From an uncultured Gammaproteobacteria bacterium (GTDB lineage Bacteria > Patescibacteriota > Microgenomatia > Levybacterales > GWA1-39-11): a stretch of 64,000 nucleotides of DNA. The position numbers and the translations under genes were made by a program. The notes below the pieces were generated by a model. It did not search any database. It was not told the DNA's origin and worked only from the letters and a program-made list of their open reading frames with translations. Shown one piece after another: positions 2,083 to 63,983 of the stretch (the first letter of the stretch is position 1; the number at the start of each line of letters is the position of its first letter). Location: positions 5,217-69,216 of the forward strand of contig CAZMSF010000001.1 of assembly GCA_964568885.1 (NCBI GenBank). Reading direction: 5' to 3'.

Positions 2083-2177
2083 TCTGCGAAGCAGACCAAG
2101 CTTTGCTTACCGTTAGACGAACCGACAATATTTTCTCGATAGGTCTAACGGCGAACTCATTAGACGAACCGACAATA
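2083..2177. repeat. Hairpin-rich region upstream of the tRNA: GTCTGCGAAGCAGAC hairpin, palindromic element CAAGCTTTGCTTAC, and two copies of TTAGACGAACCGACAATA that resemble the tRNA D-arm region
   Basis: Direct repeats at 2113-2130 and 2160-2177; inverted repeat CCGTTAGAC/GTCTAACGG; element core shared with five other loci. Confidence 0.5.
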
Positions 2178-2379
2178 AAGTGTTCCAATTATACCTTAAA
2201 TTAACTCCCAGCTTCAACCGATAGCATTCCTTTTCGGAAAAAAATGTTCTATATTGTAATAAGGGCAGAAGACCTAATCCGTAAGTTTTTTTTGAAAATA
2301 AGCAGAATTTCTGCCTAAATGGTTAAAATCTTGACTTCTCTCTTTCATGATTTTTTTAATTATTTGCCTATAATAGAAT

Positions 2380-3348
2380 ATGAAAAAAGTATATTATTAC
2401 AAAGGGCCAACTCCAAGAAAAAGCAACCATAGACTGGCCGCAATCCCTCTTTTTTTTATAGTTCTTATCCTTCTTCTGACGAGCGCAGGAGTATTCTATT
2501 TTCATTCTTCAAAAAAGGAAGCCGTACTGGCCGTTGAAACACAGGCAAAACCCGAAGCGGTACCGGTACCGACCATTTACAACGATGTTCTCAAGCAGAG
2601 CGTAGATAATGCGCTACGTGGAACAACCGGCAGCTATGGAATTGTAGTTAAAAATCTTGATACCGCCGAGCACTATGAGTTCAATGAACATGTGGTGTAT
2701 GACACTGCAAGCCTCTATAAATTGTGGGTAATGGCGGTCGTCTTTGAACAAGTAAAAAGTGGAAAGCTCAAGGAAGACACGGTACTCAGCCAGGACGTAA
2801 GCGTTCTTAATAAGAAATTCAATATTGCGAGTGATTCTGCCGGTCTTACCGAGGGTTCCGTTACCCTTACGGTGAAAGACGCGCTTTACAAAATGATAAC
2901 GATATCCGACAACTATGCAGCAATGCTTTTGACCCAAAAGGTTGGACTTTCCACCATAACTTCTTACCTTTCAAGGAATGGATTCTATGAAACAAAAATG
3001 GGAGCAACGGTAAATCTTCCGACCACTACTCCTCACGATGTCGCTTTGTTTTTTGAAAAATTGTATGGAAATAAACTGGGAGATAAAACTTCAACAGACA
3101 AAATGTTGGAGCTTTTGAAAGACCAGAAGCTCAACAACAAGATTCCAAGATATCTGCCGGATGACATCGTCATTGCTCATAAAACCGGGGAATTGGACGA
3201 ATATACCCACGACGCTGGGCTTATACTTGATGCACGGGGAAATTATCTCATCGTCATTATGTCAAAGAGTGAAAAACCCGACTTGGCGGCTAACCGCATT
3301 GCAGACATTTCAAAAGCAATCTACTCGCACTACATAGACAAAAAGTAG
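2380..3348 (+). CDS. Serine hydrolase, class A beta-lactamase-like / PBP superfamily, membrane-anchored
   Basis: SxxK (SLYK), SDN and KTG motifs in canonical order; N-terminal TM. Confidence 0.7.
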   Translation: MKKVYYYKGPTPRKSNHRLAAIPLFFIVLILLLTSAGVFYFHSSKKEAVLAVETQAKPEAVPVPTIYNDVLKQSVDNALRGTTGSYGIVVKNLDTAEHYEFNEHVVYDTASLYKLWVMAVVFEQVKSGKLKEDTVLSQDVSVLNKKFNIASDSAGLTEGSVTLTVKDALYKMITISDNYAAMLLTQKVGLSTITSYLSRNGFYETKMGATVNLPTTTPHDVALFFEKLYGNKLGDKTSTDKMLELLKDQKLNNKIPRYLPDDIVIAHKTGELDEYTHDAGLILDARGNYLIVIMSKSEKPDLAANRIADISKAIYSHYIDKK

Positions 3349-3975
3349 TTACTGGAACAGTAATTCGTTAAACCGGAATGTTGTAACCGCATGCTGAAAT
3401 ATTTTGGAGTCATTCACGCTTAATGTCCCGTCTTTTGTGTCAAGGGACAGCTCATATACCCAGTCTTCATGATCGAATGCAACGGTATTTAAGGAAATTA
3501 CTCCTTTGTATTTTCCTAATTGTACGCCCTGCAACTCTTTCGATTTTCCTACGCTTGCAAGTCTTGAGGTAAAGTCTTTGTAATAGTCAGGGTCCGATTT
3601 TTGATTGAAGAGGCGAATTGAATAGAAGCCGTTTCGAAAATAGGTGCATGTTTTACAGGGTAGGTCGGCCGGAGAAAAGGCGATGATAAGCCCTCCATTG
3701 GGTGATGCTTGAGGATATTCCTGTTCGTGCCAGTCTGCGGGCACTTCAAGAGAAAAATTATATATGGCATTGCTATATGTGCGCCACGTATCTACCTGAG
3801 GCTCTTTGAAAGGCCCCGGCTGTTCACTGCCGCCCGGCTTGTTGAGACTGAAAGTCGATTCGGGCTTGATGTTTTCCTGCTGGTGAAGGATAAGAGCACC
3901 AATGAAGATAAGAACGACTCCGATTATGATTGCGGTAAATATCCATGCTCCCGAAATTTTTGGTTCACTATCCAT
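3349..3975 (-). CDS. Hypothetical membrane-anchored extracytoplasmic protein
   Basis: Long ORF with N-terminal TM (WIFTAIIIGVVLIFIGALIL); no recognisable catalytic motif; start chosen at an internal Met. Confidence 0.4.
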   Translation of the reverse strand: MDSEPKISGAWIFTAIIIGVVLIFIGALILHQQENIKPESTFSLNKPGGSEQPGPFKEPQVDTWRTYSNAIYNFSLEVPADWHEQEYPQASPNGGLIIAFSPADLPCKTCTYFRNGFYSIRLFNQKSDPDYYKDFTSRLASVGKSKELQGVQLGKYKGVISLNTVAFDHEDWVYELSLDTKDGTLSVNDSKIFQHAVTTFRFNELLFQ

Positions 3976-4114
3976 AGAGGCGCATTCATTGTACACCAGT
4001 AATGCAAAATTTCTTTACGAGGGGAAAAAATTCGTTCTTTTGCACATTTCTTACACGCAGTGAAGAAACATGTGCTTACACGTTTCTTATAAACATGTGC
4101 TATTATATTTTGGT

Positions 4115-4613
4115 GAAGAAAAATCGGCAGGTTTTTCTGTTTGTTGTTTTGTTTTTAATTCTTGCCCAAAACCAAGCCACAGCTGCAGAAACAACCTCGG
4201 TTAACATTTCAAATAATGGAAACGGCGCGAGCTCAAGCGTTGAAGTGCACAATAATATAAACTCCTATACTTCGACAAGCACAAATTCTACTTCCAAAAC
4301 TAACATCCGAATAGAGACAAATGGAAAAGTTAAGACATATGAATCGGAAAATGGCGGCAGTGTTCATCTGGAGTCTGACGATGGAACCGCAAAAGTCGAC
4401 ATCAACAATAATAATGTTAAAGGCACATCAACAACAAACGGTGTGACCCCGACAGTGACAACAGACTCAAATTCCGCTACTGTGGAGGCAGGGCGCAAAA
4501 TAGAGATTGCAAAGCAGAAAGCAAAAGAGATGAAAGAAAAGCAAAAAGGATTTTTCGCAAGACTGGAGCAGTATTTTAAGGAGTTGTTCTCAAAATTCCC
4601 TTTCAAATTTTAA
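4115..4613 (+). CDS. Secreted S/T/N-rich low-complexity hypothetical protein; probable GTG start with signal peptide
   Basis: VKKNRQVFLFVVLFLILAQNQATA signal-like N-terminus; ORF track extends upstream to 4002 without an RBS. Confidence 0.4.
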
Positions 4614-5788
4614 TCCTTTTTTTGAATGACGTAGACAAACCCTGCCTTATCGTCCGACACGTAAAGGTTACCCCTTTTATCAAAAGTCATATCCACAGGT
4701 CTACCCAAGCTGTCGTCTTTTTGAGTGCCCGGATTAAAGCCCGTCAAAAAATCATCACTTCCAACAATTGTGTTTCCTTTTACTTTTAGGTGGACAATTT
4801 TGTATCCTATTGCTTGTGACCTGTTCCACGACCCATGGTATGAAACGAGCAAATCACCCTGCCAATCAGCGGGAAATTGAGAAGAGTTGATAAATGTAAG
4901 TCCTAATGGAGCCGAATGCGCAGGTATTTCAAAAATGGGTGCTACGGTATCCTTGCAGTCCGCTTTTTTTGTAAACAACAAGTCGGGTGTTTTATTACCG
5001 TAACAATTCGGCCATCCATAGTCCTTGTTGCCTTCCAATATGTTAATTTCATCGGGAGGCGTATTGTCTCCCAGATAGTCTCTCCCCATCTCTGTAGACC
5101 ATATTTGTCCGGTTGAGGGATTGATCGCCAAAAAGGCAGCATTTCGAAGGCCACGGGTCCACAAGTGTGCAGTATCGCCTTTTATATCTGAAATAAAAAC
5201 GGACCCTCCCTTTTCAGCCGGTTCAGTACAGACGTTGCAGGTAGAACCGAGGCTGACATATATGGTGCCGTTCTCGTCAATCACAATGCTTCTATTATTG
5301 TGGTCGGAGTTATTTGGCAAACGGAACAATTGGTTTTTAAATATTGCCTCTTTTCTCTCTTCGTCCCAAAAATATGATGCCACACGGTTAACCTCCGCGA
5401 CAAAAAGACGGCCGTCAAAAAATGCCAAACCATGGACCTTATTTCCCCCAGAGATGATTATCTTATTCTCATCTGCAACTCCGTTACCGTCTTTATCGGG
5501 CAGCGCGGTAACCGTGTTTTCAACAGGATTGGAAACAAGAAGAGTTCCGCCGGGGCTAAATTGTAAATCCCGCGGGTTGCCGAGGCCTTTGGCAAATACA
5601 TGAATTGAATATTCTGAGGGAAGAGCAAAGGGAATTGACGGTATCTCCCCAGCCGATTCTTTTTCTTTTTGAGGAGAATTTGTTTTAGAGGTAAGTTCTT
5701 TTAACGGTTCTTTCTTAAGCAGCCTGCCAAACAGCAAAAGTATTGCTATCAATCCGACCAGCAAAACTGCAATCACAAACCTTTTCAT
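4610..5788 (-). CDS. PQQ-dependent soluble sugar (aldose/sorbosone) dehydrogenase-like beta-propeller protein, N-terminally anchored
   Basis: GSDH-family blocks (GLRNAAFLAINPSTGQIW..., NILEGNKDYGWP). Confidence 0.65.
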   Translation of the reverse strand: MKRFVIAVLLVGLIAILLLFGRLLKKEPLKELTSKTNSPQKEKESAGEIPSIPFALPSEYSIHVFAKGLGNPRDLQFSPGGTLLVSNPVENTVTALPDKDGNGVADENKIIISGGNKVHGLAFFDGRLFVAEVNRVASYFWDEERKEAIFKNQLFRLPNNSDHNNRSIVIDENGTIYVSLGSTCNVCTEPAEKGGSVFISDIKGDTAHLWTRGLRNAAFLAINPSTGQIWSTEMGRDYLGDNTPPDEINILEGNKDYGWPNCYGNKTPDLLFTKKADCKDTVAPIFEIPAHSAPLGLTFINSSQFPADWQGDLLVSYHGSWNRSQAIGYKIVHLKVKGNTIVGSDDFLTGFNPGTQKDDSLGRPVDMTFDKRGNLYVSDDKAGFVYVIQKKD

Positions 5789-5791
5789 TTC

Positions 5792-6175
5792 TTACTCGTG
5801 AAGTACATGCGGCAATTCCTTCTCTATTGGCACAAACCGGATAGATAATGAATTAACACAATGCCTGGTGTTCTTTTCGGTAAGCTGCTCTCCCTCAAAT
5901 ACATGCCCCAAATGAGCACTACAATTTGCGCACTGTATTTCGGTTCTTTCTCCGTCTTCGTCGGGAATTCTTTTTACCGCTCCCGGATAGTTTTCATCAA
6001 ATGAAGGCCACCCACAGCCGGCATCAAACTTGCTTTTTGATGTAAAAAGCGGAGCGTTGCACCTTCTGCATATAAATGTTCCGTCCTTGAAAAAATCATC
6101 ATACTCCCCACTAAAAGCAATTTCGGTTCCCTTATGTGCAATCACATCCTCTTCTTCGGGCGTCAGTGCATTCAT
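5792..6175 (-). CDS. msrB: Peptide-methionine (R)-S-oxide reductase MsrB
   Basis: Two CxxC pairs (CRRC...CANC) and the GHVFEG catalytic region, typical SelR/MsrB. Confidence 0.85.
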   Translation of the reverse strand: MNALTPEEEDVIAHKGTEIAFSGEYDDFFKDGTFICRRCNAPLFTSKSKFDAGCGWPSFDENYPGAVKRIPDEDGERTEIQCANCSAHLGHVFEGEQLTEKNTRHCVNSLSIRFVPIEKELPHVLHE

Positions 6176-6212
6176 TCTTTTATTGTACCCGTATCGTGTT
6201 CCAAAGAAAAGT

Positions 6213-6500: not shown

Positions 6501-6591
6501 TTATCTTCACCTCCTTTCATCTAAACATTGTAATGCCAATAGCTATTCATACGCGTGTGAAAAAAGAAAGAATTGTAAAAGACATTGTATA

Positions 6592-7728
6592 ATGTGTACT
6601 GAGATGAAAAAAATTCTGCTTGTGATAGTGGCTCTTTCTATCCTTTTTTTCCATTGCACGGCGGACCTTTTTGCACAACAAAATACGCCGCCTGCAACGG
6701 GCCAAAATTCTGTTGAAGCAGTGGTCACGAACGTAATCGAAAACAGTGAAATTATTGAAAATACCGGCAACAAACACCCCTACCAAAAGCTTGAGCTATT
6801 GGGTTTGAGCGGTAAATATAAAGGAAAGAAGGTGGTAATTGAAAACGGTAAATACGACCAAAGTGGAGTCATTACATATAGTACCGGGGACACTATTGTT
6901 GTGGCTGTCGAGAAAAATGACAAGGGGCAGGACATGCTGACTATCACAGATTACGTAAGGCGCACTCCGCTGCTTCTGCTTTTCTCCATTTTTGCGATTT
7001 TGGCAATTGTAATAGGAGGAAGACGAGGGGCAAGCTCTTTAATTGGTATGGGAGTCACATTCGGTATATTATTTCTTTTCGTTCTTCCGCAGGTATCAAA
7101 AGGGGTAAGTCCCATTTTGGTTGTCGTTGCCGCATCATCCCTTATAATTCCTATAACTTTTTTCCTCTCACATGGCATAAACAAAAAAACGGCATGCGCA
7201 ATAATCGGTACTCTTATTGCGCTTTTTATCACCGGGCTGCTTTCGGCATATTTCGTGAACGCAGCTCACTTGAGCGGTTTTGCGTCAGAGGAAGCATCGT
7301 ACTTGAATATTATCAAAAAGGGCTCAATTGATATAAAAGGGTTACTCTTGGGCGGCATAATTATCGGTCTTCTCGGTGTTCTTCAAGATATTACCGTTTC
7401 TCAGGCTGCTATTGTTTATCAATTAAAAAGCGCGAACCGTTCGATAAAGCTATATGAATTATTCAAAAGAGCAATGGATGTAGGCCGCGACCATATCGCA
7501 TCTATGGTGAACACATTGATTTTAGTCTATGCCGGAGCTTCCCTTCCCCTACTTCTCCTATTCATAAATAATCCCCTCCCATTCTCGTCGGTCGTCAATT
7601 TTGAAATAATTGCCGAAGAGGTGGTCCGAACCCTTGTTTCAAGCATCGGGCTCATTCTTGCGGTGCCCATAACAACCGCTCTTACCGCTCTTTTTGTTGA
7701 GGTAACCTATAAATCTAAAGAAAAGTGA
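6592..7728 (+). CDS. YibE/F-family polytopic membrane protein
   Basis: Signal/TM, roughly 110-aa extracytoplasmic segment, then 7-8 TM helices with Gly-rich GRRGASSLIGMG. Confidence 0.5.
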   Translation: MCTEMKKILLVIVALSILFFHCTADLFAQQNTPPATGQNSVEAVVTNVIENSEIIENTGNKHPYQKLELLGLSGKYKGKKVVIENGKYDQSGVITYSTGDTIVVAVEKNDKGQDMLTITDYVRRTPLLLLFSIFAILAIVIGGRRGASSLIGMGVTFGILFLFVLPQVSKGVSPILVVVAASSLIIPITFFLSHGINKKTACAIIGTLIALFITGLLSAYFVNAAHLSGFASEEASYLNIIKKGSIDIKGLLLGGIIIGLLGVLQDITVSQAAIVYQLKSANRSIKLYELFKRAMDVGRDHIASMVNTLILVYAGASLPLLLLFINNPLPFSSVVNFEIIAEEVVRTLVSSIGLILAVPITTALTALFVEVTYKSKEK

Positions 7729-7993: not shown

Positions 7994-8054
7994 CAACAAC
8001 CTCACCTTCAATTCCTTCATCCAAAAAGTGTAGCACATAGGGTACAATACGGAT

Positions 8055-44792: not shown

Positions 44793-46514
44793 ATGCTTCT
44801 TTTAATTATATTTGCTTTCATAGCGGGTTTTGTAACCGTACTCTCCCCCTGCATCCTGCCTGTTCTACCTATTGTTCTTTCGGGTTCTCTTCAAGGGGGT
44901 CACAGACGGCCAATAGGCATAGTAACGGGTTTTATAGTGAGCTTTTCTCTTTTTACTTTGTTTCTTACAGCTTTAGTTAAGGCGACGGGTATTCCGGCAG
45001 ATTTTTTAAGAACTCTTTCTGTAGTAATTATTGTTTTATTTGGATTCAGCTTGTTACTACCAAATTTTCAGGTTCTTATGGAAAAAATATTTACAAAGCT
45101 ATCAGGTCTTGTTTCAAGGAATTCAACACAAGCAACAGGATTTTGGAGCGGCCTTGTACTCGGAGTTAGCCTGGGGTTAGTGTGGACTCCCTGCGTTGGA
45201 CCAATTATTGCTTCGGTAATAACTTTGGCTGCAACAAGCTCAGTGAACGGAAGCTCAATTTTAATTACTTTTGCTTACAGTCTTGGTACCGCAATACCAA
45301 TGTTTGCCATCACTTACGGAGGGCGTACTCTTTTGCAAAAAGTGCCTTTCTTGCTTAAAAATACCACAAATATCCAAAAGGCATTTGGGATCCTCATGAT
45401 TTTAGTTGCTGTAGGTATTTTCTTTAATTTAGATAGAAAATTTCAAACCCTGGTGCTTGATAAATTTCCACTCTATGGAACCGGTCTAACTAAAATAGAA
45501 GACAATGACCTCGTCAAAAACTCTTTAAAAGCTTTAAATGCACCACAAGTCGACAAAAATATGATAGGCAAACCAATGCCTGATAATAACCAGTATCCGT
45601 CTGCTCCTGAAATAATAACAGGAGGCAAATGGTTTAATTCGCAACCCTTAACGGTCTCAAGCCTCAAGGGAAAGGTGGTTCTTGTCGATTTCTGGACGTA
45701 TACCTGCATAAATTGCATAAGAACTCTACCCTACATAAAAGCGTGGAATGAAAAATATAAAGACAAAGGGCTTGTCATAATTGGGGTTCACACACCCGAA
45801 TTTGAATTCGAAAAGAATGCAAACAACGTAGAGAAAGCTTTGAAAGACTTTAAGATAACTTACCCCGTTGTTCAGGATAATGATTATGCCACATGGAACT
45901 CATACGAAAATCAGTATTGGCCTGCAAAATATCTTATCGATAAGAACGGGAAGATACGGATGACCCATTTTGGCGAAGGAGAATACGATGCGACAGAGAA
46001 AAAAATTCAGGAATTACTGAAAGAAACAGGAGCAACGGTAAATGAAAAAGTCCAAAACAAAGAATACACCGTCGACACACTCTCTCCCGAAACCTATTTG
46101 GGGTATGACAGACTCGGTAATTTCGCCTCAAAAGAGCAGGCACAACTCGACACCGTCTTCACGTATTCTCTTCCCGACAAGCTTTCATTTAATGCTTTTG
46201 CTTACGAGGGGAAATGGAACATCGGACGTACGACTGCTATGCCTTTCTCAAATTCATTACTCGCGTATCATTTTAATGCTAAAGACGTCTACCTTGTCAT
46301 AAACAGCAAAAACGGTAATTCCAAGATAAAAGTGTTGTTAGATGGCATTATGCTACCGGAAAATCAGGCTGGAGATGACGTAAGCGGCGGAGAGGTGACC
46401 GTGAATGAAAACAGACTTTATCACTTACTCCATTTTCAGAAAGCGGAAGAGCACGTTTTGCAGCTTATTTTTCTCGACGACAATTCCATGGTGTTTGCTT
46501 TCACCTTTGGGTAA
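44793..46514 (+). CDS. DipZ-like fusion: CcdA/DsbD-type thiol-disulfide transporter domain plus thioredoxin-like (redoxin) domain plus C-terminal domain
   Basis: LSPCILPVLP CcdA motif, second Cys region (TPCVGP), redoxin WTYTCINC CxxC. Confidence 0.75.
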   Translation: MLLLIIFAFIAGFVTVLSPCILPVLPIVLSGSLQGGHRRPIGIVTGFIVSFSLFTLFLTALVKATGIPADFLRTLSVVIIVLFGFSLLLPNFQVLMEKIFTKLSGLVSRNSTQATGFWSGLVLGVSLGLVWTPCVGPIIASVITLAATSSVNGSSILITFAYSLGTAIPMFAITYGGRTLLQKVPFLLKNTTNIQKAFGILMILVAVGIFFNLDRKFQTLVLDKFPLYGTGLTKIEDNDLVKNSLKALNAPQVDKNMIGKPMPDNNQYPSAPEIITGGKWFNSQPLTVSSLKGKVVLVDFWTYTCINCIRTLPYIKAWNEKYKDKGLVIIGVHTPEFEFEKNANNVEKALKDFKITYPVVQDNDYATWNSYENQYWPAKYLIDKNGKIRMTHFGEGEYDATEKKIQELLKETGATVNEKVQNKEYTVDTLSPETYLGYDRLGNFASKEQAQLDTVFTYSLPDKLSFNAFAYEGKWNIGRTTAMPFSNSLLAYHFNAKDVYLVINSKNGNSKIKVLLDGIMLPENQAGDDVSGGEVTVNENRLYHLLHFQKAEEHVLQLIFLDDNSMVFAFTFG

Positions 46515-46563
46515 CAAAGGCAAGCTCTGCTTACCTTTGGGTAACAAAGGCAAGCTCAGCTTA
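46504..46563. repeat. 30-nt tandem direct repeat (2 units, 29/30 identical) spanning the stop codons of convergent dipZ-like and murF genes; contains the GCAAGCTCTGCTTAC element and CCTTTG/CAAAGG hairpin
   Basis: CCTTTGGGTAACAAAGGCAAGCTCTGCTTA at 46504-46533 and again at 46534-46563. Confidence 0.7.
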
Positions 46564-47932
46564 CAGAGAAGAAATCTTGCTTTGTCTTCATCCAATAATC
46601 TTCTTGCCGGGTCAGCTGCTTCGCATCCAGAGGATTTTCAAGCAAAAATTTGATTGCCTCCTCAAGATACAATGTATTTTGGGAGCCCTTCACAAGCACT
46701 ATCGCATTCTCGGGAAGCTCTTCCTTTATATGAAGCGCTGCTTGCACGGCATTCTTGTAGGCCTCAACCTTCCTTGTTTTCCCTTTCTTACCGACAAATT
46801 CCTTCACACGAGGGACAACGAATTCAGTCGTTAAAGGGCCTACACAGTACAGCTCGTCAACCACCCCAATCAATGCCCCTGCAACCTCCTCATGCTCGGC
46901 TTTAGACTCGTTCCCAAGCTCTCTCATGTCCCCCATTAGAAATACAGCAGGTCTTCCTGTTTTTTCCTTAAGATTTTTTAAAAGCTCAAGAAAGGAAAGC
47001 ACGGTGCTTTTTGAGGAGTTGTACGATGAATCGATGATAAGAGAATTCTTAATCCCGGCAAATAGTGACGAACGTCCTTTGGGAATAGTAAAATTTTTCT
47101 CCAGCGCTTCTTTTATTTGAGAGTAGGACAATCCAAGAGCGTGAGCAGCCAAGAGAACAGATGCAAAACTTTCCCGGGACGCAGGGGGCAGTAACACTCC
47201 GGGAAATGAAAGTTCAAGTGTCCTATTCATTTTTTGGCCCGGAATTATGTAAGTAAATTTTGTTTTCTTGGTTGTGACAGCATAATCTCCATAGTAAATT
47301 GAATTCCTCTTGTCCGTTCCGAACGTTTGAAGAATCAAAGACTCACTTCTGGCCTTTTTTTCAATTTTTTCGACCAACCGCAAATCATCTTTGTTATAAA
47401 TTCCCACTTTTGTGTATCCGTTGGTGATGATTTTGCTATCCTCCTCGGCAATTTTTCCTAATATGAACTCGAGAGAGTCTTTTGTGTGTTTTTTGAGAAG
47501 TTTTTCGAATTGAGCAGTATGTGTTGCTGTTGCATTTAAATCAATACTCATATCGGGCTTTACTATCGTCAGAAGATAGGACATGTTTTTGGGGGGATAC
47601 GGATCATCAATGCCCATTTCTACGATAAGATGAGTTATCCCCTTGAGGTGATGGAGTCTGAATGGCGCCCTTAATAGAGTTTTTAGCCAATTCCTTTTGT
47701 CAAACCCTGCAATATCAATGCCAAGAATGCCAAGAGGAACTCCAGTTTCAGAATTTCCACTTACCACTTCCGTCTTGAAAAAATCCTTCAACGCAGCCTG
47801 GAGTGCATTTCTGGTTGATGATTTGCCTACAGAACCTGCCACACCGATAACATATGGCCTATGAAGCATCAGAGCAAGCCTTGCCCAAAGCCGAAGATAT
47901 GATAATACCACTTTCACGAGAAAATCCCGCAT
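46556..47932 (-). CDS. murF: UDP-N-acetylmuramoyl-tripeptide--D-alanyl-D-alanine ligase
   Basis: Mur ligase P-loop IGVAGSVGKSST and C-terminal FLMGDMRELGNESKAEHEEV block. Confidence 0.7.
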   Translation of the reverse strand: MRDFLVKVVLSYLRLWARLALMLHRPYVIGVAGSVGKSSTRNALQAALKDFFKTEVVSGNSETGVPLGILGIDIAGFDKRNWLKTLLRAPFRLHHLKGITHLIVEMGIDDPYPPKNMSYLLTIVKPDMSIDLNATATHTAQFEKLLKKHTKDSLEFILGKIAEEDSKIITNGYTKVGIYNKDDLRLVEKIEKKARSESLILQTFGTDKRNSIYYGDYAVTTKKTKFTYIIPGQKMNRTLELSFPGVLLPPASRESFASVLLAAHALGLSYSQIKEALEKNFTIPKGRSSLFAGIKNSLIIDSSYNSSKSTVLSFLELLKNLKEKTGRPAVFLMGDMRELGNESKAEHEEVAGALIGVVDELYCVGPLTTEFVVPRVKEFVGKKGKTRKVEAYKNAVQAALHIKEELPENAIVLVKGSQNTLYLEEAIKFLLENPLDAKQLTRQEDYWMKTKQDFFSVS

Positions 47933-52645: not shown

Positions 52646-52676
52646 TTTTTAAGTGTAGCAGAAAACTGAAAACTAT

Positions 52677-52765
52677 TACCAGTCCTTGCGAGAAGCAGAG
52701 CTTGCAGGCTCGATTGCTACCAATCATTTTTGTAAGCAAAGCTTGCAAAAAACCCTTACCAGTCT
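52677..52765. repeat. Intergenic repeat block: two copies of the palindromic element (GAAGCAGAGCTTGC and GTAAGCAAAGCTTGC) flanked by TTACCAGTC direct repeats
   Basis: TTACCAGTC at 52677-52685 and 52757-52765; element copies at 52692-52705 and 52732-52746. Confidence 0.45.
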
Positions 52766-53955
52766 TTTTTGTAGTACTTTTTTCCTTGAAGTTCTTTGGG
52801 AAGGTATTCCTGGTCTACTTTTTTCCCTTCCTTTTCTTCTTTCCATGCGTACCGCACATGTCCTTCACCGTACCCTAAATTTTTCATTACTTTGTTTGAA
52901 GCATTTCTCAAGTGCATGGGAATCGTAGGCAAATTCTCCATTTCAACGTCAGCCAGAGCCTGGAAAATTCCTGTTGTTGAAGCTATGCTCTTTTTTGCGG
53001 TCGCAAGTAAGGTCGCTGTCTGGGCCAAAATGAGCTGAGCCTCGGGAAGTCCTATCATATGAACCGCTTGCATCGCGCTTGTGGCAACCACCAGCGCCGT
53101 CGGCTGGGCGTTCCCGATATCCTCCGAGGCAAATACCACCATGCGCCGGGCTATAAACATCGGGTCTTCCCCCGCTTTTAACATCCGTGCCAAATAATGA
53201 AGCGTCGCATCCGGGTCATTCCCACGCATGCTTTTGATAAAGGCAGAAATTGTATCGTAATGGTAATCTCCTTTTTTGTCATAATAAACTGCTCTTCGTT
53301 GCATTGCATCCTCGGCTGTTTTTAGATCTAGCTTTTTAGATAAGGAAACCGCAACTTCAATTGCATTTATCGCAAATCTGGCATCCCCATTTGAATATTT
53401 AACTATGTGAGAAATTGCCTCGTCCGTTGCTCTTGCCTTTGGAAAAAGAGACAGTGCCCGCCTTACTACCTTTTCAATGTCAATATCTTCAAGCGGCTTT
53501 AAGACAAAAAGCTGCGAACGGGATAAGAGCGGCGCATTTACCCGAAAACCCGGATTTTCCGTCGTCGCCCCAATAAGAAGTATCGTTCCGTTTTCAACGT
53601 GAGGCAAGAATGCATCCTGTTGAGCCTTATTGAAACGGTGAATTTCGTCCACAAAAAGAACAGTCATTTTCCCTTTTTCTTCCTTTATGGCTTGAGCATG
53701 TTTTATGACGTTTCGAACGTCGGCAACGCCCGATGTTACGGCAGAGAAAAAAATGAACTCTGCATCAATTGAATTTGCAATGACGGTTGCCAGAGTTGTC
53801 TTTCCGCATCCCGGTGGTCCCCAAAATATCATGGAAAAAACTTGCCCACGCTCTATCATCGTGCGGATTGGTTTTCCTTTTCCTACCAAATGCTCTTGTC
53901 CTATGAACTCATCCAACGTTTTGGGGCGCATTCTCTCTGCCAGAGGTATTTGCAT
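52756..53955 (-). CDS. rarA: Replication-associated recombination protein A (AAA+ ATPase)
   Basis: Walker A GPPGCGKTT, Walker B FVDEIHRFN, MgsA/RarA C-terminal tetramerisation region. Confidence 0.85.
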   Translation of the reverse strand: MQIPLAERMRPKTLDEFIGQEHLVGKGKPIRTMIERGQVFSMIFWGPPGCGKTTLATVIANSIDAEFIFFSAVTSGVADVRNVIKHAQAIKEEKGKMTVLFVDEIHRFNKAQQDAFLPHVENGTILLIGATTENPGFRVNAPLLSRSQLFVLKPLEDIDIEKVVRRALSLFPKARATDEAISHIVKYSNGDARFAINAIEVAVSLSKKLDLKTAEDAMQRRAVYYDKKGDYHYDTISAFIKSMRGNDPDATLHYLARMLKAGEDPMFIARRMVVFASEDIGNAQPTALVVATSAMQAVHMIGLPEAQLILAQTATLLATAKKSIASTTGIFQALADVEMENLPTIPMHLRNASNKVMKNLGYGEGHVRYAWKEEKEGKKVDQEYLPKELQGKKYYKKDW

Positions 53956-54014
53956 GAGTCTATTCTAACACTTCAAAACAACCCATTTGTTTTGTAAAAT
54001 AGACAAACATAAAG

Positions 54015-54069
54015 AAGTTAGGGCCCGTAGTTCACCGGTAAGCAAAGCTTGCCGCTGCACTCGGGTCAG
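54015..54069 (+). pseudogene. tRNA-Ala 5'-fragment copy (26 nt identical to the real gene start plus 6-nt flank) fused to palindromic element and a degenerate acceptor 3' strand
   Basis: AAGTTAGGGCCCGTAGTTCACCGGTA at 54015-54040 is identical to 54070-54095; followed by AGCAAAGCTTGCCG hairpin and CTCGGGTCAG. Confidence 0.6.
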
Positions 54070-54075
54070 AAGTTA

Positions 54076-54146
54076 GGGCCCGTAGTTCACCGGTAGAATG
54101 CATCCATGGCATGGATGAGAAAGGAGTTCGATTCTCCTCGGGTCCA
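54076..54146 (+). tRNA. tRNA-Ala: tRNA-Ala (anticodon GGC)
   Basis: Acceptor GGGCCCG/CGGGTCC with G3:U70, anticodon stem CATCC/GGATG with loop ATGGCAT, T-arm AGGAGTTCGATTCTCCT. Confidence 0.8.
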
Positions 54147-54148
54147 CA

Positions 54149-54275
54149 ACAAAGTGAAAAGGTGAGCTTGTTGCGAGCAACCGGCTGCGCCGGAACGAAT
54201 CCCCTAAGGTCCACACCAGGAAAGGCTGTTGTTTGCAGCAACTGACTGCGTCAGAACGATTCTCCTCGGGTCCAC
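54149..54275 (+). repeat. Two tandem degenerate units of about 60 nt, each ending in a copy of the tRNA-Ala 3' end (GGTCCACA)
   Basis: CGGAACGAATCCCCTAAGGTCCACA (54191-54215) and CAGAACGATTCTCCTCGGGTCCACA (54251-54275) versus tRNA end GGAGTTCGATTCTCCTCGGGTCCACA. Confidence 0.6.
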
Positions 54276-54295
54276 AGTACCCTTTTTGATACGTA

Positions 54296-54829
54296 TTGAC
54301 AACGCGGCCTTCCGGTGGCATAGTAAGGAAAATGGAAAACAACGAAACAACTCCCTCAAAGAAAGGCATGTCTCCCATGATGATTGGCGGAATCGTTATT
54401 CTTATTATTGTTGTTATCGGTGCAATTGTCTTTATGACAAAGGGAGGCTCTAAATCGACCTCTGAAACGACCAATACCCCCAGTTCTGCACCGACGCAAG
54501 CGACTCAACAGGCACCTGCCGAGGGAAGCGCAATGGAAGAAAAGAAAGAAGGAGCCGTAAAAACTTTCACCATTGAGGCATCTAGCTTTAAATTCTCACC
54601 AAATACAATGACAGTTAATGAGGGAGATATGGTAAAAATTACTTTCAAAAACACCCAAGGGTTTCATGACTTTGCTCTCGATGAATTCAACGTCAAATCA
54701 AAGACTATTTCTGCCGGTCAGACCGAGGAAATACAATTTGTTGCAAGCAAAAAGGGATCCTTTGAATTCTATTGCTCTGTTGGTAATCACAGAGCCATGG
54801 GGATGACCGGGACACTCACCGTTAACTAA
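54296..54829 (+). CDS. Membrane-anchored cupredoxin (type-1 blue copper protein, plastocyanin/azurin-like); true start probably an internal Met
   Basis: TM anchor, S/T-rich linker, cupredoxin fold with His (GFHDF), Cys-x4-His (YCSVGNH) and Met (AMGM) ligands. Confidence 0.7.
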   Translation: MTTRPSGGIVRKMENNETTPSKKGMSPMMIGGIVILIIVVIGAIVFMTKGGSKSTSETTNTPSSAPTQATQQAPAEGSAMEEKKEGAVKTFTIEASSFKFSPNTMTVNEGDMVKITFKNTQGFHDFALDEFNVKSKTISAGQTEEIQFVASKKGSFEFYCSVGNHRAMGMTGTLTVN

Positions 54830-54894
54830 TGATGACGGCAAGCTTTGCTTACCGCTAGTTGACCATGTGGCAAGCTTTGCTCACCGTTAACTAA
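54815..54894. repeat. 15-nt exact direct repeat CTCACCGTTAACTAA (first copy is the cupredoxin gene end) flanking two copies of GGCAAGCTTTGCT
   Basis: DR at 54815-54829 and 54880-54894; near-perfect hairpin CGGCAAGCTTTGCTTACCG at 54836-54854. Confidence 0.6.
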
Positions 54895-57049: not shown

Positions 57050-57055
57050 GCAACA

Positions 57056-57377: not shown

Positions 57378-57732
57378 ATTTTAAGTCACCTCCTTTACGA
57401 GTAAGATAGTTCAATTTAAGAATTTTAAACTGAAATACGTTCAAATAGCAAAAATTTGAACTTAATTAGGTTCAAATTTAATGCTCTTGAGCGTACCTTA
57501 CTAATATGCACGTTCAAAGTCCGTTTGTCAAGTACTATTTGAACCTAATTTGGAATATTGATATATTGTGTACTATTCTGAGATACTGCCGGTTGTGCTT
57601 GTGTTTGAGTTTGGCGGAAGGTAAAATAGATGGACGAAAGTGAACTGCGTTCTCTCTTCGGGGTGTAAGCCTCGCTTTAATAATAATATAAATAAAGCTC
57701 GGCTTGGCTCCCCGAAAAATGTAGTACATTTT

Positions 57733-57807
57733 TCGGGGTGTAGCTCAGTTGGATTAGAGCGCGCGCTTTGGGAGCGTGAGGTCGGAGGTTCAAGTCCTCT
57801 CACCCCG
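57733..57807 (+). tRNA. tRNA-Pro: tRNA-Pro (anticodon TGG)
   Basis: Acceptor CGGGGTG/CACCCCG, D-arm GCTCAGTTGGATTAGAGC, anticodon loop TTTGGGA, T-arm GGAGGTTCAAGTCCTCT. Confidence 0.85.
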
Positions 57808-57884
57808 ACAAAATTCAGAATCTCCGACAGGTCGGATTGTGCAAGCACAGTTTCACTGCCAAGTCCTCTCACCCCGACAAAATT
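57791..57884 (+). repeat. 24-nt exact direct repeat of the tRNA-Pro 3' end (AAGTCCTCTCACCCCGACAAAATT) separated by a 46-nt two-hairpin spacer
   Basis: Copies at 57791-57814 and 57861-57884; spacer has CCGACAGGTCGG and TGTGCAAGCACA hairpins. Confidence 0.7.
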
Positions 57885-58975: not shown

Positions 58976-58979
58976 CATA

Positions 58980-59609: not shown

Positions 59610-59636
59610 CGAAGTCTCTTGTAATGCCATTTTAGT

Positions 59637-62032: not shown

Positions 62033-62037
62033 AACGA

Positions 62038-62691
62038 TTGCATCACATGACCGCTGTAATTTTTGACATGAACGGCGTCATAATAGACGACGAGCGCATC
62101 CATCAACAATCCTGGAAAGTTTACTGCAAGAATCACGGTTTCCATATAACAGAAGAAGAATTCAAGAAGAAAGTGTTCGGAAGAACAGAGAAGGATACCT
62201 TTGAATATCTCTACAATCGAAAGATTTCAAAAAAAGAGCTGGAAGAATTTTCAAATGAGCGGGTTGATACTGCTATTGAAATATTTAAACCTGTAATGAA
62301 GATGACTCCGGGTTTAAAAAAGCTACTCAAACTGCTTTCGGACAACAATATTCCTATGGCTGTTGCTACTAGCTCACGGCCACGGTATGTCCATTTTATT
62401 ATGGAATCTTTTAATATACGCCCTTTTTTCAAGGTAATTTTAACAGCCGAGGATATAGTTAAAGGAAAGCCTGACCCCGAAATATATCAAAAGTCGGCGG
62501 AAAAGTTGGGAGTTTCTCCTCATGAATGTGTTGTTATCGAAGATACTTTGTCGGGAATTACCTCGGCAAAAGCTGCAGAGATGAAGGTCATCGGCATAGC
62601 CACTACTCACTCCAAAGAAGAGTTAAAGAGTGCTAACAAGGTTGTGGATTCATTTAATGAAATTACGCTGAGCTTTTTGAATTTTCTATAG
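62038..62691 (+). CDS. HAD-superfamily hydrolase (beta-phosphoglucomutase-like)
   Basis: Motif I FDMNGVIID, motif II ATSS, motif III K, motif IV EDTLSG. Confidence 0.75.
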   Translation: MHHMTAVIFDMNGVIIDDERIHQQSWKVYCKNHGFHITEEEFKKKVFGRTEKDTFEYLYNRKISKKELEEFSNERVDTAIEIFKPVMKMTPGLKKLLKLLSDNNIPMAVATSSRPRYVHFIMESFNIRPFFKVILTAEDIVKGKPDPEIYQKSAEKLGVSPHECVVIEDTLSGITSAKAAEMKVIGIATTHSKEELKSANKVVDSFNEITLSFLNFL

Positions 62692-62699
62692 AGAATTCT

Positions 62700-63245
62700 T
62701 TACTGAGTTGGCGAAAGCAGTGCCCAATTATGTGAAACTTCGGGCACACTGCACATATTGCGGTTAAAACAACACGGTCTTCTCATTCCGCGGTTAAGCT
62801 TATCAAGCATAACGTCCAAATGTTTTTTGCGGGTTTCTTCGCTCTTTACTGCTCTCACCCACCGTATCCAGTCCCATCGTGCACTAGGCGTTATATCATC
62901 CCAAATTTCTTTCGCCTTTGAAGATGACTTTAAAGCTTTTTCAACATCCCCGGGAACGTCCGGCTCTACCCATTCTTTGGTCGGTTCGAGCTCTATATTT
63001 ACAATGTCTCCCACTTTAATATTCGCTTGTTCCAGTAATTTATCCGAGGGTCTGAACCAGTGGCTCGGTTTTTTTCCGCTTCCATATACCCCGTCCGGCT
63101 CAAGGAGAGCTTTGAATGGGATATTATTAATCGTTCCTGCGACCATCAACATGCTGCGAGTGGGAAGCTTTGCACTTTCACCGGGAGGAAGATGGAGAAT
63201 TGTCCAATCATTAATTTCAAATAATTTTGTTTTGAAATGTATCAT
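62700..63245 (-). CDS. DUF1905 plus YdeI/OmpD-associated domain protein
   Basis: N-terminal DUF1905-like beta region and C-terminal W-rich (WDWIRWV) YdeI-like segment. Confidence 0.45.
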   Translation of the reverse strand: MIHFKTKLFEINDWTILHLPPGESAKLPTRSMLMVAGTINNIPFKALLEPDGVYGSGKKPSHWFRPSDKLLEQANIKVGDIVNIELEPTKEWVEPDVPGDVEKALKSSSKAKEIWDDITPSARWDWIRWVRAVKSEETRKKHLDVMLDKLNRGMRRPCCFNRNMCSVPEVSHNWALLSPTQ

Positions 63246-63314
63246 GTGTGTCGTACGGACCTATTATAGCAATTTACCCCGAAAAGATAGTGCGCCATCT
63301 TCCACTTTGAAAAA

Positions 63315-63698
63315 CTATTTATTAGAAGAAAATTCAATTATCCATTCTATGCCGTATTTATCTCTAAACATACCCATATATGACCCCATGCCATCGTTCA
63401 TAGGCACTTCTACGCTGCCTCCGGACGATAGGCCGTTAAATATTTTTTCTGCTTCTTCTTTACTCTCCGTACTAACTGCAATTTTACTTCTGTTCTCATT
63501 CTCATTTACTTGTCCCATTCCTTCCGGAACATTATTTGCGATCAGCATATTCTCCTTGCCAATAGGTAACTTAATGAACATCATCTCGCCGTTATCATTT
63601 AGTACTTTTCTGATATCTCCACCGAAAACCGATTGATAAAAATCAAATGCTTCTTCTGCATTCCCGTTAAAGTTAATCCAAGGATTTATTGTAACCAT
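63315..63698 (-). CDS. VOC-family protein (glyoxalase/bleomycin-resistance fold, PhnB-like)
   Basis: MVTINPWINFNGNAEEAFDFYQSVFGG typical PhnB/VOC N-terminus. Confidence 0.65.
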   Translation of the reverse strand: MVTINPWINFNGNAEEAFDFYQSVFGGDIRKVLNDNGEMMFIKLPIGKENMLIANNVPEGMGQVNENENRSKIAVSTESKEEAEKIFNGLSSGGSVEVPMNDGMGSYMGMFRDKYGIEWIIEFSSNK

Positions 63699-63721
63699 AG
63701 TTTAATAATGACAAATTTTAT

Positions 63722-63796
63722 GGGTGGAAGACGGGTGCCGCCCCCGCGACCTCAGGTTCCACAAACCTGCGCTCTACTGTTGAGCTACATCCACCG
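63722..63796 (-). tRNA. tRNA-His?: tRNA-His-like (anticodon GTG, G-1:C73) with atypical D-loop (no GG) and T-loop (GGCGGCA)
   Basis: Extra 5' G pairing with C73, acceptor GTGGATG/CTTCCAC (one mismatch), anticodon stem CAGGT/ACCTG with loop TTGTGGA, encoded CCA-like end. Confidence 0.45.
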
Positions 63797-63867
63797 AAAA
63801 ATGAAATTTTTTGGTGGCATGCAAGACAAATTTTAATTTGGCTTACATCCACCTAATCAATTTCTTG

Positions 63868-63940
63868 CGCCCTCGAAGGGACTCGAACCCCCAACCTAAT
63901 CGTTAGAACCGATGTGCTCTATCCATTGAGCTACGAGGGC
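63868..63940 (-). tRNA. tRNA-Arg: tRNA-Arg (anticodon TCT)
   Basis: Acceptor GCCCTCG/CGAGGGC, D-arm GCTCAATGGATAGAGC, anticodon loop GTTCTAA, T-arm GGGGGTTCGAGTCCCTT. Confidence 0.8.
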
Positions 63941-63953
63941 AACTCTTTTGAAT

Positions 63954-63983
63954 GCCCTTGCAAGCTTTTGCTTACGAGGGCAT
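63954..63983. repeat. Palindromic element copy (GCCCTTGCAAGCTTTTGCTTACGAGGGC) upstream of tRNA-Arg whose 3' arm duplicates the tRNA 5' end (TACGAGGGCA)
   Basis: TACGAGGGCA at 63974-63983 equals 63932-63941 (tRNA 5' end, plus-strand reading). Confidence 0.45.

Follow-up and report, generated by a model that had tools for sequence, protein, structure and literature searches.

REP sequences and BIMEs, the palindromes associated with RAYT enzymes of the Y1 HUH type, are short, imperfect, extragenic and noncoding, occur in many copies and in clusters at gene ends and between convergent genes, and carry a conserved 4-nt motif at the hairpin foot. IS200/IS605 elements and the miniature PATEs insert strictly 3′ of a short, specific target that pairs with nucleotides beside the hairpin, and their ends are hairpins, not terminal inverted repeats. 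The MITEs of bacteria (Correia, RUP, Nezha and the like) are non-autonomous and intergenic, differ in presence and absence between relatives, and can bring promoters or terminators. In these respects they resemble a dispersed hairpin repeat in a 64-kb window (the whole stretch of DNA analysed) of a Levybacteria-like CPR genome. The repeat is probably a family of extremely small, non-autonomous insertion elements mobilised in trans, for which a nick, hairpin snap-back and return of synthesis form a possible mechanism. No published description of the element was found in a literature search.

The original prediction placed hairpins at six loci and, next to each, a direct repeat of the adjoining gene or tRNA end. 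This was borne out by a pattern search and repeat comparison, which located the duplications exactly at all six loci and found the predicted coordinates correct to within 1–3 nt. Searching the 64-kb window with GCAAGCTTTGCTTAC, allowing up to 3 mismatches, gave 9 matches versus 2.31 expected, a count reached in 0 of 100 shuffles. The ninth match (42364-78, 3 mismatches) lies inside a glycosyltransferase ORF without a flanking repeat and is probably due to chance; the copy at 63960-75, which has a 4-nt loop, was picked up by a gapped scan. Fold computation agrees with the predicted hairpin with one G-U/G-T pair, the repeat is, as had been stated, not a CRISPR, and the same structures recur in 10 independent metagenome assemblies of the window's organism. 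The matches and features of the window are as follows.

2096-2110, 46520-34, 46550-64, 52691-705, 52732-46, 54038-52, 54838-52 and 54870-84: matches to GCAAGCTTTGCTTAC with at most 3 mismatches
2096..2177, minus strand: element upstream of tRNA-Gln (tRNA-Gln itself at 1982-2053, minus strand)
46503..46564, minus strand: two 30-nt tandem units (46503-32 and 46533-62) at the convergent ends of the DsbD-like and Mur-ligase genes
52676..52773, plus strand: composite insertion past the end of the MgsA-like gene (52756-53955, minus strand)
54013..54095, plus strand: insertion in the D-loop of tRNA-Ala(GGC), with a 28/28 identical repeat
54129..54276, plus strand: 128-nt insertion 3′ of tRNA-Ala, terminated by a 20-nt tRNA-end repeat
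54815..54894, minus strand: insertion between the convergent cupredoxin and M10-peptidase genes (gene ends at 54829 and 54899)
57659..57884, plus strand: surroundings of tRNA-Pro (57734-57809)
63932..63982, minus strand: element upstream of tRNA-Arg (63867-63940, minus strand)

The order of parts is polar and the same in all copies: host sequence X, core, inverted arm A′, spacer, and a second X joined to the intact gene. X ends in GGTA, GTA or GTG, and the core, whose constant part is only ~11–13 nt (AGC-ARA-GCTTG(CC)), invariably lies 3′ of a host site ending in (G)GTA or, less often, GTG or ATA. The 3′ half of the core pairs with its own AGC and with the TA/GG of the host, forming a hairpin of 7 bp in which one T·G wobble is fixed; stem–triloop variants with GCGAAGC occur. 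A′ repeats the end of X (the 4–20 nt of host sequence immediately upstream) in inverted, imperfect form. It aligns to the reverse complement of X with 5–9 matching nucleotides where X is short and is ~80% identical over up to 20 nt where X is long, and it is confined to X in 17 of 20 anchored cases. The direct duplication comprises 3–40 nt of the same upstream sequence and rebuilds the interrupted gene; the two direct repeats are 100% identical where long inverted arms are only ~80% complementary. Other hairpins in the locality have the same architecture. The inverted host-sequence copy after each hairpin had been missed by the original prediction, and the fixed polarity, the GGTA target, the host derivation of the arm, the variable duplication length and the CPR-wide distribution likewise go beyond it.

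In the D-loop of tRNA-Ala, X1 (54013-40; 8 nt of leader plus tRNA nt 1–20, with GGTA at the end) is followed by the core and inverted arm (54041-67; AGCAAAGCTTGCC GCTGCACTCGGGTC) and by X2 (54068-95), which runs into the intact tRNA at 54076-54147 (fold z −2.75). At tRNA-Arg, the minus strand reads TGCCCTCGTA, AGCAAAAGCTTGC, the inverted arm AAGGGCA, a spacer and again TGCCCTCGTA, leading into the tRNA; the repeat TACGAGGGCA occupies 63932-41 and 63973-82 (fold z −4.9). The DsbD-like gene occupies 44793-46514 on the plus strand and the Mur-ligase gene 46556-47932 on the minus strand; between them, each 30-nt unit consists of TTACCCAAAG, GTAAGC-NGA-GCTTGC and CTTTG, and the loop of the first hairpin is the TGA stop codon of the Mur-ligase gene (fold z −5.2). 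Past the MgsA-like gene, TTACCAGTC occurs twice (52676-84; native copy 52756-64), together with a degenerate hairpin (52692-705), a gene-end copy that has diverged (CTACCAATCATTTTTGTA, 52717-34) and the hairpin GTAAGCAAAGCTTGC (52732-46), followed by the inverted arm AAAAAA. Between the cupredoxin and M10-peptidase genes, the native repeat CTCACCGTTAACTAA (54815-29) and its distal copy (54880-94; 15 nt) enclose 50 nt bearing hairpins at 54838-52 and 54870-84, and the 5′ arm (GGTGAGC) of one hairpin comes from the distal repeat copy.

The tRNA-Gln element is an old, decayed copy: its hairpin GGTAAGCAAAGCTTGG (2096-2111) is fused with a diverged duplicate of the tRNA's D-arm region (TCGTCTAACGGTA versus native TCGTCTAATGGTA), with an 18-nt repeat (2113-30 and 2160-77) and a weak fold (z −0.24). 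On the 3′ side of tRNA-Ala, the native repeat (54129-48) recurs at 54257-76 and as a diverged middle copy at 54196-215, accompanied by two hairpins (54177-95 and 54238-56) that belong to a second, local family. Around tRNA-Pro, a degenerate element upstream (57659-77; CGGGGTGTA then AGCCTCGCTT) and a perfect 14-nt palindrome (57710-38), which takes in tRNA-Pro nt 1–5, are accompanied by a repeat of the 25-nt tRNA 3′ end (57791-815 and 57860-84) with GCAAGCacaGTTTCAC in the spacer between. This degenerate copy and the 3′-end duplications of tRNA-Pro and tRNA-Ala were absent from the original prediction.

In syntenic relatives (85–91% MgsA identity) the corresponding positions are empty, with 1–17 nt between genes and a clean tRNA-Ala. 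The gap between the M10-peptidase and cupredoxin genes is 6, 1 and 5 nt in relatives L011, L014 and L132, compared with 69 nt in the window, and that between the Mur-ligase and DsbD-like genes is 9 nt in both L013 and L014, compared with 41 nt. The MgsA end is empty in L013 (17-nt spacer, flanking genes unchanged) and lacks the duplication in L132, although the downstream gene differs there; L133 has only the distal unit in common with the window, and L011 carries two copies in the opposite orientation, which are independent hits. The same tRNA-Ala in L132 has no insertion on either side, with gtatcc directly after the tRNA, and L011 shares only the first unit of the 3′ insertion. A tRNA-Gly that is clean in the window bears two elements in L011, and the tRNA-Arg element has an orthologous copy in L011, the stems differing as GC/GC versus AT/AT through two compensatory pairs. 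Since the relatives' sites are empty, the elements are insertions with a target duplication of 3–40 nt, and since the empty sites hold neither hairpin nor repeat, both arrive together. The elements behave as the proposed REP/MITE-like dispersed micro-element, and orthologous sites in relatives are empty or differently filled.

Among the 51 events that show an exact repeat of 7 nt or more, X ends in GGTA in 45, the loci having been picked with a pattern that itself contains GGTA. The usual landing sites are tRNA D-loops, extended −10 boxes (TGGTAnAAT) and gene ends (TGG-TAA), because GGTA occurs there; native targets frequently read GTAG, and the first copy is preceded by native TGGTATAAT promoters. 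In sense-tRNA events the repeat reaches tRNA +1 in 22/22, its start coinciding with +1 in 10 and lying no more than 4 nt away in 21, and non-tRNA repeats, including those at sites inside gene ends, are mostly 7–16 nt. These length distributions suggest that only insertions with a duplication back to tRNA +1 or the stop codon keep the gene intact and persist. At tRNA genes the duplication typically begins at +1, and no shorter one would leave the tRNA gene intact.

Many CPR classes contain the same 17-mer, in most cases placed behind the GGTA of a tRNA D-loop, and exact copies are present in MAGs named Levy-, Davies-, Woese- and Kaiserbacteria, Paceibacterota, Saccharibacteria, Peribacteria and Gracilibacteria. 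None of its matches in cultured non-CPR genomes has any repeat, no phage copy was found, and the family is essentially confined to CPR/Patescibacteria in the collections searched. Tandem arrays of 2–4 units are present at L024, L072 and L118, composite units, for example GCTTGCC-atctggtgat-GGTAAGC, turn up repeatedly at separate loci (L072, L081, L109, L118), and in L011 a whole tRNA-Ala follows a hairpin as cargo inside a disrupted tRNA-Ala. Old copies keep their stem through compensatory changes, as in the tRNA-Arg element and in the variant GGTAAGAATC-AAA-GATTCTTGCC of L088.

Insertion may begin with a nick in one strand 3′ of GGTA, from which the freed 3′ end would peel back as a flap of variable length. 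A putative trans-acting enzyme or template would add the core, and the new hairpin would snap back and prime copying of the flap, producing the inverted arm; synthesis would then return to the original template and re-copy the flap region up to the nick, yielding the direct repeat. Once inserted, units amplify in tandem, can carry cargo and are also lost, and selection retains old copies as hairpins. We infer the nick, flap and snap-back from the sequence of the insertion product alone. Counting against this mechanism, copying should yield a perfect arm at the outset, but long arms are only ~80% complementary; beside the 100% identical repeats, this calls for error-prone synthesis, loss of perfect palindromes or a constraint on the first copy. 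The diverged middle copies at 52.7 kb and 3′ of tRNA-Ala likewise call for two events or a transferred composite unit. Also at odds with the preferred reading are the identity of the 17-mer across CPR classes, unusual for a selfish repeat, and 3 of the 20 arms, which seem to run beyond X. No perfect-palindrome donor was found in 134 loci, no RNA template or master copy in the sequences searched, and no recurrent protein family or linked ORF near the copies.

Vertically inherited terminators or processing signals, with repeats arising by slipped-strand duplication seeded by a resident hairpin, are very unlikely. Many copies do lie right after stop codons or upstream of tRNAs, old copies maintain their stems and one copy scores terminator-like, but orthologous sites that lack both hairpin and repeat already contradict this origin, which the original prediction had offered as an alternative. 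Nor are the copies strictly conserved among relatives, one site carrying opposite orientations in sister lineages. Orientation to flanking genes is mixed, both 52.7 kb copies are antisense to both neighbours, and 8 of 9 copies lack a T-tract. It is extremely improbable that the repeats are att-site scars of tRNA-targeting integrative elements that lost their interior: the 20–25-nt tRNA 3′-end repeats, which start from the T-loop, resemble integrase att cores, but the inserts measure 27–128 nt without an integrase, most repeats derive from 5′ portions of tRNAs, from promoters or from the ends of protein genes, the same hairpin adjoins every repeat, and no full-length islands lie between tRNA-end repeats in L011–L014 or L132–L133.

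Doubtful, and a rival in mechanism rather than mobility, is an HUH/Y1 single-strand DNA enzyme (REP–RAYT or IS200/IS605-like), encoded elsewhere in the genome, that would cut on the 3′ side of GGTA and transfer the hairpin, leaving the duplications as a by-product of repair at the replication fork. The fixed 4-nt target pairing with the hairpin foot, insertion strictly 3′ of it, the frequent GTAG and the stem–triloop with its GCGAAGC variants, typical of stable single-strand DNA hairpins, favour it; yet such families make no target duplication, none adds an inverted target copy, and REP sequences are species-specific, whereas the 17-mer spans CPR classes. The IS200/IS605-type transposase originally proposed as mobiliser was not found in the sequences searched, and no Y1 homologue was detected among 4182 ORFs in ~1 Mb of element-bearing loci (~8 kb per genome); both negatives are weak evidence. 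Spread without dedicated machinery is unlikely: a stable hairpin whose 5′ arm mimics the tRNA D-arm GGTA(G)AGC would move by microhomology-mediated template switching in replication and be kept as useful between packed genes. Junction microhomology extending past GGTA (GGTAAG, GTAGC), inverted and direct copies resembling template-switch products, the recurrent composite units, the similarly built local hairpins and the lack of an enzyme in the loci searched all fit, but an identical 17-mer in distant CPR classes, its near-absence elsewhere and the invariant T·G wobble are left unexplained. Quite unlikely is SINE-like retro-insertion, in which a reverse transcriptase (RT) copies a small hairpin RNA primed at nicked GGTA, a variable second-strand nick sets the duplication length and cDNA snap-back makes the inverted arm. 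Duplications varying from 3 to 40 nt and microhomology between target end and element suit it, and self-primed hairpin synthesis is a classical property of RTs, which CPR bacteria commonly have (DGR and group II types). Against this, no RT was seen near the copies, the scanned window ORFs contained no transposase, RT or integrase domain, Rfam gave no match or candidate RNA gene, the element has no 3′ tail, and its 11–13-nt unit is far below the size of any known retroelement.

Taken as a trans-mobilised insertion element, the repeat shares variable target duplications and microhomology between nicked target and incoming sequence with LINE/SINE target-primed reverse transcription; those elements are eukaryotic, hundreds to thousands of nucleotides long, A-tailed and dependent on an RT-endonuclease, none of which is shown for the CPR element. 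Fungal mitochondria have mobile palindromes (yeast GC clusters, the PstI palindromes that flank Neurospora tRNA genes, and Allomyces double-hairpin elements) that are likewise very short, lie near tRNA genes or gene ends, make short target duplications and form tandem arrays, and for which, as for the CPR element, we know of no established mechanism. They differ in being organellar, in sequence and in duplications of 2–5 nt, and to our knowledge no host-derived inverted arm has been reported in them. REPs lack a target duplication and a host-derived inverted arm, are species-specific, are not aimed at tRNA D-loops, and have a cognate RAYT gene flanked by REPs; a gene of this kind was not seen here. 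MITEs are 50–500 bp long, with terminal inverted repeats of their own sequence and a duplication length fixed by the transposase. IS200/IS605 elements and PATEs are at least ~100 nt long, with two different ends and no duplication, whereas the constant part of the CPR element is 11–13 nt and its duplication 3–40 nt.

A scan of the window with GCAAGCTTTGCTTAC, allowing up to 3 mismatches, gave nine matches against 2.31 expected, a number reached by none of 100 shuffles, and a gapped scan of the window added a copy with a 4-nt loop at 63960-75. The match at 42364-78, which lies in a glycosyltransferase ORF with 3 mismatches and without a flanking repeat, is probably due to chance. All other copies adjoin a direct repeat of a neighbouring gene or tRNA end, as the original prediction had it, and the coordinates it gave for them are correct to within 1–3 nt. 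When oriented as GTAAGC-loop-GCTTGC, the copies have a common polar layout, comprising host sequence (X), the core, an inverted arm (A′), a spacer, and X again running into the intact gene. The invariant core, AGC-ARA-GCTTG(CC), is only about 11–13 nt long; nothing else is constant, and there is no conserved right end among the window copies. X ends in GGTA, CGTA, TGTA or GGTG in these copies and, because X supplies that stretch, the GGTA in the 5′ arm of the hairpin is host-derived. The hairpin foot reads GGTA-AGC, and native targets are frequently GGTAG or CGTAG. A T·G wobble is present in every stem, on the GTAAGC-loop-GCTTGC strand, and no perfect-palindrome master (GGCAAGCNNNGCTTGCC) was found in 134 loci.

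X, core and A′ together form an extended hairpin, with z-scores of −2.0 to −5.2 for five of six window copies folded as single-stranded DNA, and of −0.24 for the decayed tRNA-Gln copy. At protein genes the first nucleotides of X are precisely the complement of the stop codon (TTAGTTAACGGTGAG, TTACCCAAAGGT, TTACCAGTC), and at tRNA-Ala it is composed of an 8-nt leader and tRNA nucleotides 1–20. At 46556-58 the hairpin loop doubles as the stop codon (TGA) of the Mur-ligase gene, so that the element supplies this gene's final two codons and its stop.

The MgsA-like protein (52756-53955) has an 82% identical homologue named Candidatus Levybacteria by NCBI, and the loci used for comparison, L011–L014 and L132–L133, are syntenic with the window and have MgsA identities of 85–91%. 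Copies are variably present and absent at orthologous sites, as in MITEs, and the empty sites hold a single copy of the repeat.

Orthologous sites in the window and in syntenic relatives.
M10 peptidase and cupredoxin gene ends: spacer of 69 nt in the window; 6 nt in L011, 1 nt in L014, 5 nt in L132
Mur ligase and DsbD gene ends: spacer of 41 nt in the window; 9 nt in L013 and L014
MgsA gene end: spacer of about 110 nt in the window; 17 nt in L013
tRNA-Ala: insertions of 55 nt (5′ side) and 128 nt (3′ side) in the window; same tRNA with both sides clean in L132
tRNA-Gly: clean in the window; two elements upstream in L011

The hairpin, inverted arm and duplication come together at GGTA sites on an otherwise unaltered backbone, and the mobile micro-element proposed in the original prediction is supported and extended. 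At the MgsA end (GACTGGTAAG), L011 has two copies in the orientation opposite to that of the window copies, and GACTGGTAAGTA as a 12-nt repeat; the distal unit alone is common to L133 and the window, and L014 has a different 28-nt insert with the same flanking repeat. Judging from these sequences, the MgsA end is a hot spot of recurrent, independent insertion. The tRNA-Arg element is common to the window and L011, where two compensatory pairs change the stem from GTAAGC/GCTTGC to GTAAAT/ATTTGC. In L011 the window-type tRNA-Ala is dead, its nucleotides 1–20 being followed by the hairpin, an arm complementary to a different tRNA-Ala, the whole of that other tRNA-Ala and, last, what is left of the old gene. 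It follows that the element can bring cargo with it and substitute one gene for another.

Ten metagenome contigs from differing samples and assemblers are 98–100% identical to the window at 42.7–57.8 kb and carry exactly the same elements. An assembly artefact is therefore ruled out, the same structures being present in these 10 independent assemblies and in closed genomes; no strain-level polymorphism of the elements was seen among contigs of this identity. Two contigs of the window organism break inside hairpin elements (the end of L005 at window position 52704 and the start of L007 at 54039), so the repeat fragments assemblies. The L011 contig (CAYPEN010000003.1) and many of the other loci belong to TPA_asm MAGs titled 'uncultured Gammaproteobacteria bacterium', yet have CPR-type sequence; these titles look like mislabels, L011 being syntenic with the Levybacteria-like window.

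With one genome taken per species, GGTAAGCARAGCTTGCC occurs in at least 117 stretches. Among the matches listed, structured copies, defined by a flanking repeat or by membership of an array, are found in MAGs named Levyi-, Davies-, Woese- and Kaiserbacteria, Paceibacterota, Saccharibacteria, Peribacteria, Gracilibacteria and 'Patescibacteria group', and others in TPA assemblies with doubtful labels, such as the L011 contig. The matches listed from cultured non-CPR genomes lie inside genes and lack the repeat, which fits chance, because by our own arithmetic roughly 140 matches are expected in 596 Gb for a 17-mer with one two-fold position. A phage origin was rejected, the 2 IMG/VR matches being at the level of chance. 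Flanking repeats likewise accompany structured copies in MAGs with the labels Elulimicrobium, Acholeplasmataceae, Nitrospiraceae, Tissierella and Woesearchaeota (L020, L065, L104, L129 and L130); either CPR contigs were mis-binned there or the host range is wider.

Target choice was analysed in 51 events across the CPR, each flanked by an exact repeat 7 nt or more in length. GGTA precedes 45 of these, from loci that had been picked with a GGTA-containing pattern; 22 lie in the sense strand of a tRNA, 4 in the antisense strand and 6 in arrays. The repeat extends to tRNA +1 in all 22 sense-tRNA events; its start coincides with +1 in 10 of them and is no more than 4 nt away in 21. The native TGGTATAAT promoter sits 5′ of the first copy, and insertion therefore takes place within the tRNA, after the D-loop GGTA or a GGTA at positions 6–9. 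At non-tRNA sites, gene-end interiors included, repeats are mostly 7–16 nt, and direct-repeat length varies overall from 3 to 40 nt (7–40 nt among exact repeats, 3 nt in L011). We read the pile-up at tRNA +1 and at stop codons as selection, in which only events that rebuild the gene survive, and the intrinsic duplication as short and variable; dead remnants with 3–4-nt repeats in L011 and in L087, another outside locus, agree with selection. Further targets are the extended −10 box TGGTAAAAT and the complement of tRNA 3′ ends.

Inserts in Parcubacteria and Saccharibacteria are longer, about 65–80 nt, with a TCGGA(G)A that is semi-conserved, a TCCTCAC-like end, and a stem-loop that is specific to the lineage and often resembles a bidirectional terminator. 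Alignment folding of 16 long Parcubacteria-type inserts with RNAalifold gave the 7-bp hairpin alone in common, the downstream stem-loops being lineage-specific. In the outside locus L088, a variant hairpin (GGTAAGAATC-AAA-GATTCTTGCC) about 80–105 nt past the first hairpin stands in tandem with a canonical copy; its outer stem and loop are kept and its inner stem is 3 bp longer.

Several tRNA loci showed further features. A seventh tRNA in the window, at 63723-63794 on the minus strand, scores 48.8 bits with the Rfam tRNA model and is absent from the ARAGORN output. A second, purely local hairpin family (GCAACCGGCTGCGCCGGAA and GCAACTGACTGCGTCAGAA, at 54177-54195 and 54238-54256) has members that differ in two compensatory stem pairs; a copy of the tRNA-Ala 3′ end comes after each of them, and the L011 orthologue has yet another stem, CCACGC-tta-GCGTGG; the combination of a hairpin with a duplicated gene end is therefore not confined to one hairpin sequence. 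At tRNA-Pro (57710-57738 in the window; also in L011 and L014), the leader and the first 5–8 nt of the tRNA form a perfect 13–15-nt palindrome. The sequence of its leader half differs in all three lineages with complementarity perfect throughout, which suggests strong structural selection or repeated regeneration. About 100–250 nt downstream of tRNA-Pro, L014 has a second, D-loop-interrupted copy (reverse complement of 5700-5830), in which three ~28-nt units of unrelated sequence, repeated in tandem, separate GTAGCTCAGTTGGA from GTAGAGCGCGCGC.

The inverted arm aligns to the reverse complement of X, with 5–9 nt matched when X is short and a match of as much as 20 nt, about 80% identical, when X is long, and ends inside X in 17 of 20 anchored cases. 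The direct copies of X in the same events are 100% identical, in part a selection effect of having required exact repeats. Such a structure could arise by a snap-back pathway, in which one strand would be nicked 3′ of GGTA, its freed 3′ end raised as a flap of variable length, and the core joined on. The 3′ half of the core would then pair with AGC and host TA/GG, and the paired 3′ end would copy the flap to give A′, which would account for an arm that is host-specific and usually not longer than X. Synthesis would go back to the intact strand and re-copy the flap region up to the nick, producing the second X, and the insertion would be fixed in one daughter at the next replication. The core might be added by a HUH/Y1-type enzyme that transfers hairpins, by a reverse transcriptase using a small RNA as template, or by copying of another genomic copy from a microhomology primer. 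The differences between repeat copies, read from the sequences, are not A-specific, and adenine mutagenesis of the DGR type was therefore rejected. The pathway in this specific form is tentative, and leaves unexplained the ~80% fidelity of long arms, composite insertions with a diverged middle copy, the invariant T·G wobble and the 17-mer identity between distant CPR classes. It is conceivable, at rather less than even chances, that the CPR have a novel DNA-insertion activity that recognises GGTA through base-pairing, writes the hairpin onto a nicked strand and leaves the hairpin to prime itself, possibly an enzyme that carries or uses a fixed 11–13-nt hairpin template.

Transposase, reverse transcriptase, integrase or cas domains were not found in the window ORFs scanned, and clustering of the ORFs within 2.5 kb of copies gave no recurrent protein family. 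No RAYT gene was detected in the window ORFs scanned or in the ORFs of ~1 Mb of loci, and a phmmer search with an approximate query, a weak test, detected no IS608 TnpA-like ORF in ~1 Mb of element-bearing loci. At gathering thresholds, Rfam matches in the window and 11 element-rich loci were limited to tRNAs and a single, unrelated group I intron. A group I intron (RF00028, 80 bits) at 6967-7192 on the minus strand of L017 shares its Paceibacterota contig with a hairpin element and does not adjoin it. Searches of open-access papers and bioRxiv by sequence variants and keywords found no description of the element, the sequence variants giving a single, irrelevant match; a paper that deals with group I introns of tRNA genes in Patescibacteria makes no mention of hairpins or duplications (PMC13011429).

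The alternative offered in the original prediction, a terminator hairpin that seeds slippage, is not supported. Orthologues lack the copies, their sites being empty, against a terminator conserved with its gene; and an intrinsic (Rho-independent) terminator family is at odds with a T-tract scan passed by one of nine copies, with mixed orientation and with the 52.7-kb copies, which are antisense to both neighbours. CRISPR arrays have identical 23–50-nt repeats, unique spacers of similar length and usually cas genes, whereas the 27–34-nt units here have identical 'spacers' that copy adjoining host sequence; we agree with the earlier exclusion of a CRISPR. As RNA, GGU/AAGC-ARA-GCUU-G-CC has the U·G-wobble form of a group I intron P1, extended by upstream pairing, a resemblance only: the inserts are 18–128 nt, against about 200 nt or more for the catalytic core P3–P9, and there is no Rfam intron at the sites. 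Attachment-site scars of a tRNA-targeting integrative element do not fit inserts of 27–128 nt without an ORF, the repeats of which mostly come from the 5′ portion of a tRNA or from outside tRNAs. The reading we consider probable is that of a hairpin element that targets GGTA, occurs CPR-wide and is genuinely mobile.

If this reading is true, the element is, to our knowledge, the smallest insertion unit, and we know of no transposition chemistry that fits its signature of fixed hairpin, host-derived inverted arm and variable duplication. Identifying the activity responsible could uncover a new way to write short sequences at base-paired targets. Under the less likely reading of a novel hairpin-writing activity, the elements would form a new class of 'written' micro-insertion, reshaping gene ends, promoters and tRNA genes throughout a bacterial radiation. 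The element helps to account for oddities of CPR genomes, including pseudo-halves of tRNAs beside genuine tRNA genes, the replacement of tRNA genes, and changes to C-termini and stop codons; we speculate that it may also supply hairpins where neighbouring genes are 1–9 nt apart. In practice, it breaks metagenome assemblies, can mislead tRNA and gene callers, and gives strain-level markers.

The element is filed with the small palindromic mobile repeats, in no named family, because the testable defining features of those families (absent or fixed-length duplication, inverted repeats of their own, species-specific REPs) differ from those found here. Like REP/BIME sequences, it is a short, imperfect, multicopy extragenic palindrome with stable hairpins. 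However, REP/BIMEs are species-specific and have no target-site duplication, whereas direct repeats of 3–40 nt flank these inserts. A conserved GTAG at the 5′ foot and a cognate RAYT gene, usually REP-flanked, are further characters of REP/BIMEs. MITEs have their own terminal inverted repeats, a length of 50–500 bp and a fixed-length duplication, whereas here 11–13 nt are constant, one hairpin arm comes from the host and duplication length varies. IS200/IS605-derived PATEs likewise insert 3′ of a specific tetranucleotide, as the window copies do after GGTA, CGTA, TGTA or GGTG, but have distinct left and right hairpin ends and no duplication, in contrast to the duplication and lack of a conserved right end seen here. 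The mobile palindromes of fungal mitochondria are also among the closest known kinds, and the common ground with all of these is a short palindrome located at gene ends, to which the IS200/IS605 derivatives add insertion 3′ of a tetranucleotide.
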